A DNA stretch of 64,000 nucleotides from an uncultured Candidatus Bathyarchaeia archaeon (GCA_964508155.1 CAZDRE010000004.1:58989-122988), one strand, 5' to 3'. Shown: positions 22,049-33,958, numbered from the stretch's first letter. Notes: generated from the letters alone by a model not told the origin. Program-made: numbers and translations.

Positions 22049-22345
22049 GTGTCAGAATTGAATGGTCCGAGAAAATGTTCTCCACGTTGTCCAAAATTTA
22101 GATGCGCAAGGAACTTCCTTGAGTTTCGAAGCAGAATTGCTTGGTGCCGATGGACAAATGAGCCCTGCAATCCAGGAAATTGTAGTTATGCAATATGCAT
22201 TAGTAGACGGCTGTTACCTAATGGTATCTGCGGAGAATCGCTGAAGCGAAGAACCTCCGAGAAGAGACCTGAAGATGAACCTCTACAGACAATTAAGGTT
22301 CGTGGAAAAGTTTATAGGAAGATCGGCGAGAGAGAGATATTTTAA
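22049..22345 (+). CDS. Cys-rich small hypothetical protein
   Basis: CSPRCPKFRC...WCRW...C...CSYAIC...GIC; 8 Cys, probably metal-binding. Confidence 0.65.
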   Translation: MSELNGPRKCSPRCPKFRCARNFLEFRSRIAWCRWTNEPCNPGNCSYAICISRRLLPNGICGESLKRRTSEKRPEDEPLQTIKVRGKVYRKIGEREIF

Positions 22346-25061: not shown

Positions 25062-26303
25062 TCAGCGAAGGGTGTTCAAATACTTGGGAATATAACTTAT
25101 CATGTTTCTGATTCTTTCATCCTCCAAGAATGCCTCTTTTATAACTCTGAATGGAACTCCAAGTGTTGTCTTTTTTGATCTTCCATACCTACCAAGACTT
25201 ACAACTCTCGAGTTTACTAACCCGATAATATCAAGTTCATTTATTAGTCCGCTTACCCTTCTCTGTGTGAGCGGATTAATGCCCATCTCCTCACATAGCT
25301 CGCAATATACATTGTAAATATCTCCGGTCATGAGAGCCTTAGCCTTGGACTTTGAAAGAAGGAACAAACTCAAAAGCACGACTTTTGAGTGCATTGGGAG
25401 AGATCTCAAAGTTTCGATTATGTGATCATGCTCGATTCTTTTCTGAGCTTTATACACATATTCCTCTGAGATCTCATTTTTTCCATCTCTCTCAGCAAGT
25501 TCAGCGGCTACTCGGAGAAGATCAAGTGCTCTTCTAGCATCACCATGCTCAGCCGCAGCAATAGCCGAACATAATTTTATTGCAGCATCAACCGATACTT
25601 CCTCCCTAAAGGCTATCTTTGCACGTTGTCTAAGAATATCTTGAAGCTCTTCAGCATTGTATGGCTTAAATACGATCTCCTCTTCACTTAATGTACTTAA
25701 AACTCTTGGATCAAGCATGTCCTTGAAGCGAAGATCATTCGATATTCCAAGAATTGAAACTTTACTTTGACTAAGAGTTTCATTTATTCTGGTTAGCTCA
25801 TAAAGGAGAGTATCTCCTCTTTCCTTTATGAGGGCATCTATCTCGTCAAGAGCAACTACAAGAACTATCTTTTTGGAGTCTAGAGCCGATTTGAATCTAT
25901 CAAAGACTTCTCCTAATGCAAGACCAGTAAATGGAACCTTAACATCTATGCTGGAGCATAGTGCCGAAAGAACTCTATACTCAGTTCCTACAAGCCTACA
26001 ATTTACAAATGACACCTTGAGCGGCGCTTTAATCTCCATAGCTTTCTTGGCTAAATGATTAATAACAAACTTTGTTACAGCCGTTTTTCCTGTTCCTGTT
26101 TTTCCATAGATTAAAACATTTGAGCAAAGCATTCCTCTTAGTGAAGGACCCAAAATTTGCCCTAACAATCGTATTTCTTCTTCCCTATGAGGAAGGTAGT
26201 TAGGAATGTAATCATGCCTGAGAGCCTCTCGATTCTTAAAGATCCTAGACTCTCCCAGGAAGTTGCTAAAGACATTGTCTAATATCTCGCTCTGTCTCTC
26301 CAT
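25062..26303 (-). CDS. cdc6: Orc1/Cdc6 replication initiator
   Basis: LPHREE, Walker A GKTGTGKT, Walker B LDEID, GDARRALDLLR, C-terminal wHTH SLGRYGR. Confidence 0.96.
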   Translation of the reverse strand: MERQSEILDNVFSNFLGESRIFKNREALRHDYIPNYLPHREEEIRLLGQILGPSLRGMLCSNVLIYGKTGTGKTAVTKFVINHLAKKAMEIKAPLKVSFVNCRLVGTEYRVLSALCSSIDVKVPFTGLALGEVFDRFKSALDSKKIVLVVALDEIDALIKERGDTLLYELTRINETLSQSKVSILGISNDLRFKDMLDPRVLSTLSEEEIVFKPYNAEELQDILRQRAKIAFREEVSVDAAIKLCSAIAAAEHGDARRALDLLRVAAELAERDGKNEISEEYVYKAQKRIEHDHIIETLRSLPMHSKVVLLSLFLLSKSKAKALMTGDIYNVYCELCEEMGINPLTQRRVSGLINELDIIGLVNSRVVSLGRYGRSKKTTLGVPFRVIKEAFLEDERIRNMISYIPKYLNTLR

Positions 26304-26421
26304 AGTGATCCTCTAGCCGTAAAGTCGCTTTCTAGGAATAGATGATATTCGCGGTAATGATAGATAAGGTATGCTCTACAAAAAAATTGATAATGTAACA
26401 AAACATCTTGACATTCTCCCA

Positions 26422-26444
26422 CACCCCTAAATTTCTACTGGAAC
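26422..26444 (-). repeat. ORB element 1
   Basis: Minus strand GTTCCAGTAGAAATTTAGGGGTG matches the ORB core TTCCAGTGGAAA plus G-string. Confidence 0.88.
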
Positions 26445-26534
26445 CTATCAATCTTACCGTTTCAATTTTTGAAAAATATAAAAAATAGGATAATATTAGA
26501 TTAGTTCTAAGAAATTGGGAAATAGGAAAAAGAG

Positions 26535-26557
26535 TTTCCAGTAGAAATAGAAGGGTG
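26535..26557 (+). repeat. ORB element 2
   Basis: TTTCCAGTAGAAATAGAAGGGTG, inverted relative to ORB1 across an AT-rich tract. Confidence 0.88.
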
Positions 26558-26659
26558 CGGCTCTTCTTATCTTTGTGTAAAGAAAAATATGTGATCTGGA
26601 AAGTTTCTTCCTTTTCCTCTTTCTTCTCCGTATTTTTTCTTCATTTTTCTGTGAATTGG

Positions 26660-26682
26660 CACCCCTCCATTTCCACTGGAAA
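26660..26682 (-). repeat. ORB element 3
   Basis: Minus strand TTTCCAGTGGAAATGGAGGGGTG, perfect ORB core. Confidence 0.9.
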
Positions 26683-26854
26683 TCTGAACAGAATTACTTT
26701 TTATTTTCGTTTTCTTTTAGAACATAGCATTATCTTTTCTTCACAGAAATATTTGAATATTTTGTCTCTTTTTGCCTTTTAGGGATATTTTGTATTTATT
26801 TTCTTCACTGATTAACCGATGATCTTATTAACTTGCGAAATGTATAAAGAAATA

Positions 26855-26870
26855 TTGTGAAGCGTCACAA
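26855..26870. promoter_or_regulatory. palindromic operator-like site TTGTGA-N4-TCACAA
   Basis: Perfect 6-bp arms between TATA-like TGTATAAA (26841-26848) and the start at 26873. Confidence 0.5.
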
Positions 26871-26872
26871 CG

Positions 26873-27262
26873 GTGATACGACTATTGCCAGCCAATAAGA
26901 TTCGCGTTGAGGTATATGACAGGTCGGGCAACCGTTATACAATAACGTTAGAGGGTTCAATCTCTAGAGAAAATGTTATAAAGCTCTTAGATATAGTTGA
27001 ACTTCTTGGCGGAATGCATGGCTCACCTTCTAATTCAAGTTTCTCAACTAAATTCGAGAAGATTCAATCAATAATCGAGAATTGTTTTTCGTCTTCTTGG
27101 TTCTCAGCTAAAGATGTACAAATAGAATATAGAAATATCACAGGCGAGCATATAGGCTTAAGCACAGTTTCCACTTATCTTTCGCGGTTAAGTGAACGCG
27201 GACTATTGATTAAGCAGAGAATATCCAATAGGACTCGTTATCGTCTCATTACCGTTAAATGA
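26873..27262 (+). CDS. origin-adjacent winged-helix protein
   Basis: Small N-terminal alpha/beta domain, then FSAKDV...LSTVSTYLSRLSERGLL...RYRL wHTH. Confidence 0.75.
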   Translation: MIRLLPANKIRVEVYDRSGNRYTITLEGSISRENVIKLLDIVELLGGMHGSPSNSSFSTKFEKIQSIIENCFSSSWFSAKDVQIEYRNITGEHIGLSTVSTYLSRLSERGLLIKQRISNRTRYRLITVK

Positions 27263-27266
27263 TTCA

Positions 27267-27950
27267 TTAACTCTCTCTGCTCAGTATTCTTCTCATCTCT
27301 TCCTTTATCCTATATACATACGGAATTCTATCAGTTCTTCTCTCGACATATCCTTTATCATAAAGATTTTTCATTAAACGTCCCGTATGCTCTCTTGTCA
27401 ATCCGATCCTACTTCTTATTTCACGAACAGTCTTATCTCCTTCAGTACATAGAATCTCAAGGACCCTAAGTTCTGTTGGTGTAAGTGAAGTTATTGCCCT
27501 CTCTTTTTCTAAAGGAAATGCAGGCTCAAGATGCATCGGCTGTCCTCTTTCTCTCTTGAGCCTCTCATCCTGAACCTTCTCTTTCGAAGTTCTATTCATA
27601 TTTACTTTTATTTCCTCAATTTTATTATTTAGTTCTAAATATGACTCTTGTAACCTACTTACTTTAGAAGAAATGGTCTCCAAATCGATTTTAATTTGCT
27701 TCAAATCAGGTAATTCCAAATGAGAAAATCTTCTTTCAAGATCTTTAATTCCCTTTCTTAATTCTTCAATTTCTTTCCTGAAGCTAAAAATTACCTCTTC
27801 AATTATACCCTTAGCTTGAGCGTACTCTCTGCTGACGTTCAGTGATTTTATTACATAAATTATAAGGATTATCGACATAATAGAGAGAAGCAATAAATTG
27901 GCAATAAAGATCATCGAATCGCCCAATTCGATCTCCTCTCGTGACCTCAC
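27267..27950 (-). CDS. membrane-anchored coiled-coil protein with C-terminal winged HTH
   Basis: Hydrophobic IFIANLLLLSIMSIILIIYVI, heptad coiled coil, then LTPTELRVLEIL...TREHTGRLMKNLYDKGYVER...PYVY; start may be at 27914 or 27926. Confidence 0.8.
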   Translation of the reverse strand: MRSREEIELGDSMIFIANLLLLSIMSIILIIYVIKSLNVSREYAQAKGIIEEVIFSFRKEIEELRKGIKDLERRFSHLELPDLKQIKIDLETISSKVSRLQESYLELNNKIEEIKVNMNRTSKEKVQDERLKRERGQPMHLEPAFPLEKERAITSLTPTELRVLEILCTEGDKTVREIRSRIGLTREHTGRLMKNLYDKGYVERRTDRIPYVYRIKEEMRRILSRES

Positions 27951-27991
27951 ACGATATCACATATCACAAATAAATCATATATGATGTCACA
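27941..27991. repeat. TGTGAT/ATCACA repeat cluster A
   Basis: GTGACCTCACA, GATATCACATATCACA, ATGATGTCACA lying between the TATA box (minus-strand TTTATTTAAT, 27991-28000) and the gene start. Confidence 0.7.
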
Positions 27992-28063
27992 TTAAATAAA
28001 GCTTTTTGAGGCAATTATCCAATTAAAGGAGTGAAATAATCTTCTTTTATTGGCCCAATCTTT

Positions 28064-28103
28064 TGTGATTTGTGATTTGTAATGCGTGATGTGTGATATC
28101 ACA
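28064..28103. repeat. tandem heptad array B ending in palindrome TGTGATATCACA
   Basis: TGTGATT TGTGATT TGTAATG CGTGATG TGTGATA TCACA, exact 7-bp period. Confidence 0.8.
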
Positions 28104-28587
28104 TTTTCATTGCTCTCGGTTTTGAAAGATTAATTAATTCATTTTTTATTTCATCTTGGAACATTTGTAGAAATCTTAGAGTTTCCTTTGATTTTCTATT
28201 TTCTTGCCAAAAATTCCTGTATGCTTCCATATAATCCTTAATTTTGTTTGCAATTTCTATATAAGGCTCAAGATTTGGAGTATCGAGTATGCCTAGATAT
28301 CCTAAAAGAATTATCGTATAAATTGATCTTATCGCATTAATTCTGGCCTGTGCTAGTGTTCGGTTGAATGATCCTCTACTTACGCCCGATCTTATAAGTC
28401 TCATCTTGGCTTTATCTTCATAAACTATCCTCTTTCCTGAAATTTTTTCCGCTAAAATGTCAATTAAAAGAGTTTCTAATTGTGTTTTTGTTAACTGACT
28501 GTTTTTTAGAAGTGTTTCAACAATTGGGTCTCGAAAAATTCCTAAAAGCCATCTTCTAACATCATTCCTCAAACTCTCAATTGACAC
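28099..28587 (-). CDS. conserved archaeal hypothetical protein with HTH-like core
   Basis: SQLTKTQLETLL...VSRGSFNRTLAQARINAIRSIYT resembles a sigma-70 region 4/HTH-type helix pair. Confidence 0.7.
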   Translation of the reverse strand: MSIESLRNDVRRWLLGIFRDPIVETLLKNSQLTKTQLETLLIDILAEKISGKRIVYEDKAKMRLIRSGVSRGSFNRTLAQARINAIRSIYTIILLGYLGILDTPNLEPYIEIANKIKDYMEAYRNFWQENRKSKETLRFLQMFQDEIKNELINLSKPRAMKM

Positions 28588-28699
28588 GCTATAATCGCCC
28601 CTGTTTTGGATACAATTTAATATACGCCTATATGACTGATTCTTTATAAATCTTGTTTAATAATCAACTAAAATAAAAGTCTATTTCAATATGCTACTT

Positions 28700-28749
28700 T
28701 ATCACAGAACTTCTATCACGTATCGTGTGATGTAACATGTGATATCATG
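28700..28749. repeat. TGTGAT/ATCACA repeat cluster C
   Basis: TATCACA, TATCACG, then tandem TGTGATGTAACA and TGTGATATCATG in the divergent promoter region. Confidence 0.7.
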
Positions 28750-28811
28750 ATCAGAATTTTAAACGGCAAACCTTAAGAGCAAATTTAGCATTTTATCTTT
28801 CGGAGAGAAGG

Positions 28812-29039
28812 ATGGGTAGAAGAAGACGAAAGATTATTAGAATGCCCAAGAAGAAGCTTCCGAGGGTCTTTCTTTGTCCGAAGTGCGGGAAAGAGGCTAT
28901 AAGGGTTGAGATAAAAGATTCAAAGAGTGCCTTAGTGAAGTGCGGGAGTTGCGGATTATCTGTTGAAATGCCAAAGAAGGAGATTCACAAAGAAATCGAT
29001 GTATACTGCAATTTTATCGACAATTATTATAGTGTTTAA
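28812..29039 (+). CDS. elf1: transcription elongation factor Elf1
   Basis: MGRRRRK...LP..FLCPKC...CGSCG...IDVYCNFID. Confidence 0.92.
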
Positions 29040-29888: not shown

Positions 29889-30200
29889 TTGACATCATTC
29901 GAGAATTACTTTGCATCTTTAAAGAAGATCTTGGGAAGGGAAGATTTATACGATATATGGCCTGACTTCGAACCAGAATACGATGAACGGGAATTCGCTT
30001 GGACAAATCTCAAAGGATTAGGAGAAACTCTACTTCTCAATTGTGGCCAATGCGACGGTCCGTCAGATATGAGACATAAACGATGTAGAGAATGCGTAAA
30101 TCGTAGGGCTAAAATTGCAAGAGAAGTCTATCGTCAAGTTGTTGGTCACCCAATAGAGAAATGGCCTACAATAATACTCTGCAGAATCCATACTGAATAG
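29889..30200 (+). CDS. small Cys-containing hypothetical protein
   Basis: LLNCGQCDGPSDMRHKRCREC; GGAGG upstream; 7 nt before polC. Confidence 0.7.
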   Translation: MTSFENYFASLKKILGREDLYDIWPDFEPEYDEREFAWTNLKGLGETLLLNCGQCDGPSDMRHKRCRECVNRRAKIAREVYRQVVGHPIEKWPTIILCRIHTE

Positions 30201-33679: not shown

Positions 33680-33958
33680 ATGTCCAAGTGGAATTTTCAT
33701 CCAAAAGCATTTTTGCTACGCATAAAGAATGTGAATGCTGGATTAACGGCTAGAACTAGGATAGCGACGTTACTGGAGAAGGAGGCAATGAATGCTTCCG
33801 AGATTAGCGAGAAGTCAGGTCTCAGCTACTCATCTGTTTTACATCATCTGCACCTAATGGAGAAGGAGCATATAGTTGCCAGAAGCGATAAGAGACCATA
33901 CAAATGGAGATTAACGGGTGCAGGCCAGAAGAGATTAATCGAGGTCTTTAAGGAGTAA
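33680..33958 (+). CDS. ArsR-like winged-helix protein
   Basis: RTRIATLL...ASEISEKSGLSYSSVLHHLHLMEKEHIV...PYKW. Confidence 0.8.
   Translation: MSKWNFHPKAFLLRIKNVNAGLTARTRIATLLEKEAMNASEISEKSGLSYSSVLHHLHLMEKEHIVARSDKRPYKWRLTGAGQKRLIEVFKE

Follow-up and report, generated by a model that had tools for sequence, protein, structure and literature searches.

The described systems closest to the locus reported here are bacterial, namely RicO with its ricS sites in Staphylococcus aureus, RocS in Streptococcus pneumoniae, and RacA with its ram sites in Bacillus subtilis (10.64898/2026.03.06.710092, accessible portion). The locus lies in a 64,000-nt stretch, hereafter the window, of the genome of an uncultured Candidatus Bathyarchaeia archaeon (GCA_964508155.1, CAZDRE010000004.1:58989-122988), and comprises three genes, designated here A, B and C, that stand beside a predicted replication origin together with arrays of a short word, YGTGAY. 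As far as the available text of that paper describes them, the bacterial systems share with it a protein combining a helix-turn-helix (HTH) DNA-binding domain with a coiled coil, a membrane-binding end (in RicO and RocS), specific origin-proximal sites, and the lack of a ParA in the unit. The bacterial proteins begin with a small N-terminal HTH that is followed by the coiled coil, whereas B is reversed, with a membrane helix first and a winged HTH (wHTH) last, and is archaeal. A membrane element joined to a DNA-binding domain by a coiled coil is likewise predicted for membrane-type B. No match of B to a RacA-type protein was found in Pfam, NCBIfam or PDB sequences, no direct profile comparison having been run. 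Literature searches found origin-to-membrane tethering for chromosome positioning in bacteria only.

Among archaea, the SegAB and AspA-ParBA systems of Sulfolobales have a DNA-binding protein with centromere-like sites beside its own gene, and doubt over whether sites of this kind are centromeres or operators has been noted for these systems too (PMC5120986, in the part available). How chromosomes are segregated in archaea outside Sulfolobales is an open question according to the accessible passages of two papers (PMC5120986, PMC7617429). The module differs from SegAB and AspA-ParBA in having no ParA/SegA ATPase and in the predicted membrane anchor of B. A first-pass annotation, made from the window sequence alone, had remarked that no ParA is visible beside the module, and this holds: none is encoded at the locus, and the five AAA_31 matches of the genome are either Mrp/ApbC-like or below the ParA/MinD cut-offs. 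No SegB-named match was found for A, B or C in the libraries searched, in which the presence of a SegB model was left unchecked. As to an aspA-parB-parA cassette, there is no ParA or ParB in the locus, and AspA (4rs8) appears just at rank 28 (E 0.019) among the generic wHTH matches of A. A term search of the accessible text of PMC12139799 gave no mention of these lineages.

Of the archaeal regulators ArnR and ArnR1, ArnR binds promoters and combines an N-terminal HTH with HAMP and sensor domains and with two helices at its C-terminus (PMC6396743, accessible portion). B resembles ArnR in carrying an HTH and a membrane helix in one archaeal chain; it differs from ArnR and ToxR in having no sensor and in that its sites are not tied to promoters, though they overlap the start of B in most Bathyarchaeia. 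The available part of PMC10269533 does not mention these lineages. No description of the module was returned by the literature searches, whose coverage did not extend to supplements with possible arCOG or neighbourhood tables, and the module is real, conserved and apparently undescribed. The new contributions of the current study are the test of B-dependence, the use of insertions as a test and the finding that three motifs are to be told apart.

YGTGAY arrays and their candidate reader

The gene order in the window is polD-small, cdc6, three origin recognition box (ORB) repeats, A, B, C, elf1, GGGP synthase (GGGPS), a 103-aa gene and polD-large. Gene B (nt 27267–27926, minus strand; start at ATG 27914 or the in-frame TTG 27926) encodes a predicted N-terminal membrane helix (a hydrophobic 19-mer, Kyte-Doolittle (KD) 2.83), a coiled-coil-like middle of ~100 aa, and a C-terminal MarR/TrmB-type wHTH, which scores above the curated Pfam cut-offs of PF12802 (MarR_2; 37.9 against 27 bits), PF01978 (TrmB; 36.1 against 25.6 bits) and PF01047 (MarR; 35.4 against 24.6 bits). 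Three clusters of YGTGAY half-sites accompany it. Array 1 (nt 27940–27991) has four half-sites between the TATA-like box and the start of B; array 2 (nt 28064–28103) has five, including the palindrome TGTGATATCACA, on the stop codon of C, and in relatives forms the constant centre of the site; and array 3 (nt 28701–28749) has four between C and elf1. All lie within ~2 kb beside the B gene and 1.3–2.1 kb from the nearest ORB. The first-pass annotation had reported over a dozen TGTGA/TCACA half-sites in less than 2 kb, and 14 are indeed present at nt 26855–28750. Its word is now sharpened to YGTGAY with defined direct and inverted spacings, and its statement that motifs occupy every promoter-side space fails at two places: the motif at nt 26855 is a different one (its palindrome occurs in 0 of 23 relatives), and nt 28064–28103 is the 3' end of C, not a promoter.

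The concentration of the word at this locus is exceptional within the genome. TGTGAT occurs 11 times in nt 26300–28812, compared with 1.09 expected from the genome rate. The 1.85-Mb genome has 2226 YGTGAY half-sites, which form only three clusters of at least four, all of them here (random placement gave a mean of 0.08 and a maximum of 1 in 200 trials), so that the enrichment near oriC, for which the first pass proposed a check, is borne out. When the genome is divided into 2-kb bins (n=904), this locus has 14 half-sites and the runner-up 9. Isolated palindromes elsewhere in the genome are at control-word level only. In the single-contig genome G040, 12 of 60 paired sites fall within 1.4 kb at the module locus. 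The preferred spacings among half-sites (n=344) are 7 and 11 bp for direct and 6 and 13 bp for inverted pairs, a pattern of the kind that cooperative protein loading would be expected to produce.

Searched with a single query, B was recovered from 24 of 40 relatives, many of the misses being fragmented genomes. Of these 24 loci, 23 have C, 23 have A and 21 have cdc6, and where one is missing the locus runs up to the end of a contig; at least five half-sites lie between B and C in 23 of 23 relatives. With a profile, B is detected in 105 of 121 genomes at the level of the class and in 89 of 151 at that of the phylum. The Nitrosopumilaceae set, the best 80 of 582 confirmed stretches, has C in 80 loci, A in 74, cdc6 in 70 and the membrane helix in 80, with array enrichment above twofold in all 80 (median 9.6-fold). 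The order cdc6-oriC-A-B-C is kept across Bathyarchaeia and these 80 loci, and both the synteny and the conservation of the motif in orthologous loci, on which the first-pass annotation had made its reading depend, are confirmed. Methanomethylicaceae and their kin retain a convergent A–B pair in which B has no membrane helix.

The protein most likely to read the array was sought by scoring 72 loci for a dense array, defined as at least four half-sites per 100 bp (L030, cut by a contig end, was dropped). Dense arrays are found in 40 of 42 loci that have a membrane-type B with the recognition helix REH[TS], in 3 of 13 where B is without the membrane helix and keeps the recognition-helix Arg, in none of three (one family) where that Arg is lost, and in none of seven that have no B; the reversed word, used as a control, gave none in 72. 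Two genomes, G103 and G073 (100% and 98% complete), have cdc6-A-C-elf1, B nowhere by profile, and no array. The absence of arrays was predicted beforehand for further B-less families (C was found in 9 of the 10 genomes searched): there were at most two half-sites per 100 bp in 8 of 9 such loci, and at least four in 11 of 11 further B-bearing loci. At the stop codon of C the array is present in 39 of 41 B-bearing Bathyarchaeia loci, as against 0 of 9 that are B-less. Arrays remain in loci from which A is gone (L082, L083, L085) and, more weakly, in Methanomethylicia, where the C profile matched nothing in 5 of 5 genomes. Because the arrays track B, and not A or C, across related genomes, B is the simplest reader, and on these comparative sequence data it very probably does read the array.

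A different reader, either C or an unlinked protein for which the arrays would be, for example, an SMC-loading or replication-barrier site, with B merely a co-inherited partner, is very unlikely. It would account for the centring of the arrays on the C stop codon and for their staying with C where a hypF gene parts B from C; C has a probable HTH, and SMC is encoded in the window genome (above cut-off). Yet C occurs without arrays at its stop codon in the B-less genomes just mentioned, the Methanomethylicia have arrays and no C match, and in one family the arrays fade where the recognition-helix Arg of B is lost.

Some counts tell against B as the reader. Two of the 42 typical membrane-type loci are without a dense array, membrane-type B with other recognition-helix residues is accompanied by one in just 1 of 7 loci, and a dense array occurs without a detected B in L272, whose contig ends inside hypF on B's side. 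Relatedness inflates the independence of all these counts: loss of B is seen in some six families, and a gene insertion may in each case go back to one event.

Position of the arrays relative to genes

If B were an ordinary membrane-bound transcription regulator of the ArnR/ToxR kind, self-repressing and controlling elf1-GGGPS-polD or C, the arrays would be its operators and auxiliary sites. Its MarR/TrmB-type domain would suit such a role, A and C also look self-regulated, and single-pass regulators are the commonest type according to the accessible text of PMC10269533. In the window array 3 abuts the elf1 promoter, and in most Bathyarchaeia array 1 occupies exactly the position of an autorepressor site, between the TATA-like box and the start of B, which weighs against a purely structural site. 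Natural insertions separate the operator reading from a positional one, in that the arrays stay when elf1 or the B promoter is displaced. Where elf1 abuts C, at least two half-sites lie upstream of elf1 in 12 of 13 loci with membrane-type B; where elf1 is more than 1 kb from C, there is at most one in 9 of 9. Five loci have hypF upstream of B, four of them with hypF separating B from C and the fifth with C outside the stretch analysed; the 200 nt upstream of B have no half-site in 5 of 5, and clusters are found instead at the C stop codon and inside hypF.

Neighbouring coding sequences appear to have been rewritten to carry the word. The half-sites within hypF exceed those of a whole-gene synonymous shuffle in 5 of 5 loci (p<=0.038), compared with p 0.97 for the distant hypF of the window genome, and nadE genes adjoining C have clusters in 4 of 4 loci (p<=0.002), five more distant nadE copies having 0–2 half-sites. 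In one clade an aminotransferase gene adjoining C has clusters in 20 of 21 loci, and seven paralogues elsewhere have 0–2; this comparison is weakened by the controls being 42–48% paralogues, one of them (L220) with p 0.028, and by the aminotransferase and B-wHTH segments having been picked after the clusters were seen. Half-sites are coded within B's own wHTH in Nitrosopumilaceae (4.0 vs 0.5, in 78 of 78 loci; two without a control sequence or a motif match were dropped). The mean distribution of half-sites in 41 B-bearing Bathyarchaeia loci has its peak at the C stop codon and extends from roughly -1.25 kb to +1 kb.

Taken on this evidence, the array is probably a structural, non-promoter site. 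Transcriptional regulation as the purpose of B is unlikely: its own promoter is free of arrays in 5 of 5 hypF-type loci, no array follows elf1, arrays are coded inside hypF, nadE, the aminotransferase gene and B itself, the genome has no target cluster elsewhere, and B has no external sensor domain. A cell-cycle regulon controlling the replication cluster, which the first-pass annotation had offered beside tethering, is unsupported: the genome has no further cluster, the cdc6 and A promoters have none either, and array 3 stays when elf1 moves. Where it overlaps the transcription start of B, array 1 probably gives autorepression as well.

Array 3 was also considered as a promoter mark of whichever gene follows C, and this was rejected, as in L110, L111 and L112 it is at the 3' end of a nitrilase gene. 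More YGTGAY clusters occur in housekeeping genes near the module, namely in the fen1 coding region of L036 and L041 and the GGGPS coding region of L104 (6201–6250); these were chosen after the fact, and the orthologue compared was the window's fen1 only. L282 (9870–12192) has near-repeated stretches with array clusters at the hypF end and downstream, which suggests local duplication or misassembly.

Predicted membrane anchor, origin linkage and a possible tether

In 123 of 123 membrane-type B proteins the content of K+R is higher after the helix than before it, and the N-terminus is acidic. By the positive-inside rule, this distribution predicts an N-out/C-in anchor with the wHTH inside the cell, no signal-peptide n-region and no cleaved signal, so that neither the cleaved signal nor the outward-facing wHTH raised in the first-pass annotation is indicated. 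Since the array is seen only where B is encoded, B likely binds the array and is likely to keep the origin at the membrane, and on balance we lean towards the reading that B occupies a centromere-like array and so anchors the origin region at the membrane, as a tether that serves its positioning or segregation. Anchored by its N-terminal helix, B would project cytoplasmic wHTH domains on a coiled-coil stalk, could oligomerise through the coiled coil, and may load cooperatively on half-sites 6, 7, 11 and 13 bp apart. The resulting assembly of B and array would be a centromere-like complex 1.3–2.1 kb from the nearest ORB, such that, once replication has been initiated, the two daughter origins would each have a membrane anchor of their own and be positioned for segregation; the tether would work with SMC and without ParA. 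A broader proposal, that this is a ParA-free membrane-anchored centromere fastening the origin to the cell envelope across Bathyarchaeia and Nitrosopumilaceae, independent of RocS, RicO and RacA in evolution, with the site bound to its position so firmly that it is recoded into any gene that lands alongside, is put forward more tentatively, as possible but a little less than evenly balanced.

Control of initiation in place of segregation is unlikely. At the membrane B might sequester or insulate the fired origin, or gate the loading of Cdc6/MCM, while A would act on the flank of the ORBs. The co-occurrence and position evidence fits this equally well: the compact site is no more than ~2 kb from the ORBs, the interval from the last ORB to A contains boxes proper to A, which are gone when A leaves the origin, and soluble variants of B keep arrays. 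However, the ORBs and the unwinding region are free of YGTGAY clusters, and 2.6-kb insertions between origin and arrays are tolerated, as is a far greater separation in G062, in which C-B is ~16 kb from the ORB and cdc6, and A is 490 kb off.

The tether, which was the principal suggestion of the first-pass annotation, has gained comparative support from arrays unique to the locus, from their co-occurrence with B and not with A or C, and from a site defined by position; it is qualified by lineages in which B is missing or without its helix. The membrane helix is absent in 16 of 65 B loci scored, nine of them Methanomethylicia-type, and several of the latter have moderate arrays (7–18 half-sites within 1.5 kb), which means that loss of the anchor need not abolish DNA binding. 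Whole Bathyarchaeia families yielded no B by profile (f14, 0 of 2; f46, 0 of 2; f48, 0 of 4; f49, 0 of 2), and B is therefore dispensable there; several families of the phylum yielded none by profile either, e.g. f22 (0 of 13) and f28 (0 of 7). The site also spans ~2 kb beside the B gene, as against nine ricS sites over ~700 kb in the accessible description of RicO (10.64898/2026.03.06.710092).

The helix-less B of L099, L100, L101, L108 and L238 has a short hydrophobic-basic stretch at its N-terminus and is still beside cdc6; in L099, L100 and L108 the recognition-helix Arg and the arrays are both lost. An amphipathic, membrane-targeting N-terminus in helix-less B was considered and is unsupported, hydrophobic moments being low and mixed. 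In three Methanomethylicia-type genomes the best genome-wide ORB match is upstream of A beside the A–B pair, with cdc6 116–193 kb away (G046:C1:796303, G053:C1:1430967 and G113:C1:341469–343263); G046 and G053 have one ORB only, so theirs is a candidate origin. These three genomes and G062, in which B keeps near the ORB although A is far off, speak for a link of the module to the origin. The Methanomethylicia-type origin may be uncoupled from its initiator gene.

Genes A and C and the surrounding replication cluster

Three distinct motifs, not a single one, are present at the locus. Besides the arrays, TGT[TGC]AA boxes lie upstream of A on the origin flank (nt 26825–26862, plus strand) and include the site at nt 26855. 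Over 62 A loci 163 such boxes were observed where 26.9 are expected, and they fall to 0–1 in five loci where A has left the origin (L252–L256). Nitrosopumilaceae (L119–L198) have TGT[TGC]AA / TGTTAACA boxes upstream of A, 3–6 per locus, between the last ORB and A. The boxes are possibly an origin element read by A instead of a promoter operator. Just upstream of C is a degenerate ATACA-N4-TGTAT palindrome (nt 28608–28625), likely C's own operator. This palindrome is found upstream of C in 42 of 62 C loci (2.5 expected) by a pattern that was loosened after inspecting the data and that leaves the window's own copy outside it. A and C are likely separate regulators with motifs of their own, and not array readers.

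The first-pass annotation had described the genes next to the ORBs as a soluble wHTH, a membrane helix-coiled coil-wHTH protein and an HTH-like protein; the first two descriptions stand, and the third is probable by way of divergent homologues. Gene A (nt 26873–27262, plus strand) is soluble, with a small N-terminal beta-beta-alpha domain and a C-terminal wHTH (model pLDDT 81); its wHTH scores are below the Pfam cut-offs, the wHTH topology is present in the structure model, and a fold search gave generic wHTH matches, none with E<=0.001. Gene C (nt 28099–28587, minus strand) is all-helical (model pLDDT 90.5) and is probably a divergent sigma70-r4/Tfx-like HTH protein. Among 24 C homologues, two match Sigma70_r4 and one the Tfx family (TIGR00721, E 1.2e-6), an N-terminal sigma70-r4-like HTH signal that is consistent with a high-scoring Atlas lead; the window C itself has no Pfam or NCBIfam match. 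Fold searches with C gave no Foldseek match at E<=0.001, and VIA-align covered only the C-terminal hairpin (Z<8).

In several Bathyarchaeia families a two-gene insert stands between A and B, beside the origin (L043:3427–5959, L039:3418–5995, L038:6708–9228, L110:8239–10777). It encodes a 330–340-aa protein with no NCBIfam match, which we take to be NurA-like, and a HerA/CedD-like ATPase far below cut-off. A recurring gene of 100–108 aa with an HTH-like stretch occurs upstream of A near the ORBs (L227:8179–8505, L230:8745–9050, L231:8195–8497, L282:4475–4795); the one copy searched has no NCBIfam match.

The predicted oriC (nt 26419–26682; inverted and direct repeats I1, I3 and D10) consists of three repeats with G-strings (nt 26419–26446, 26533–26560 and 26659–26682) around AT-rich DNA, which we take to be ORBs from the known consensus. 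It is preceded by the cdc6/orc1 initiator gene (nt 25062–26303, minus strand; NF001625, 519 bits, above cut-off). The layout of the repeats matches the description in the accessible part of PMC4010727, which also reports a single mapped origin in Nitrosopumilus maritimus. The gene elf1 (nt 28812–29039, plus strand; PF05129 above cut-off, and synteny) is the first of the elf1-GGGPS-X103-polD large run, in which a conserved Cys-rich 103-aa gene (nt 29889–30200; 65–86% identity in relatives, no family match) lies between GGGP synthase and polD-large. On its two sides the replication cluster is bordered by a 98-aa Cys-rich gene (nt 22049–22345, no family match) and a 92-aa wHTH gene (nt 33680–33958), both with conserved synteny in relatives. 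GC skew across the window showed no clean switch and was not used, and a sigma-70 promoter scan of the window gave 10 hits compared with 10.2 expected, which is uninformative for archaea. One metatranscriptome contained 8% of the window's words, and contigs of 90–99% identity span parts of A, B, C and elf1; starts and levels cannot be read from them.

Nitrosopumilaceae are among the most abundant marine microbes, and in cultured, ammonia-oxidising members of this family the module offers for study a protein with a name, a word of 6 bp and a site of 2 kb. It is also a clean case of a cis-site rewritten into coding sequence. Even if its purpose should be the control of initiation, it would be a novel element associated with the origin and conserved in several classes of archaea.

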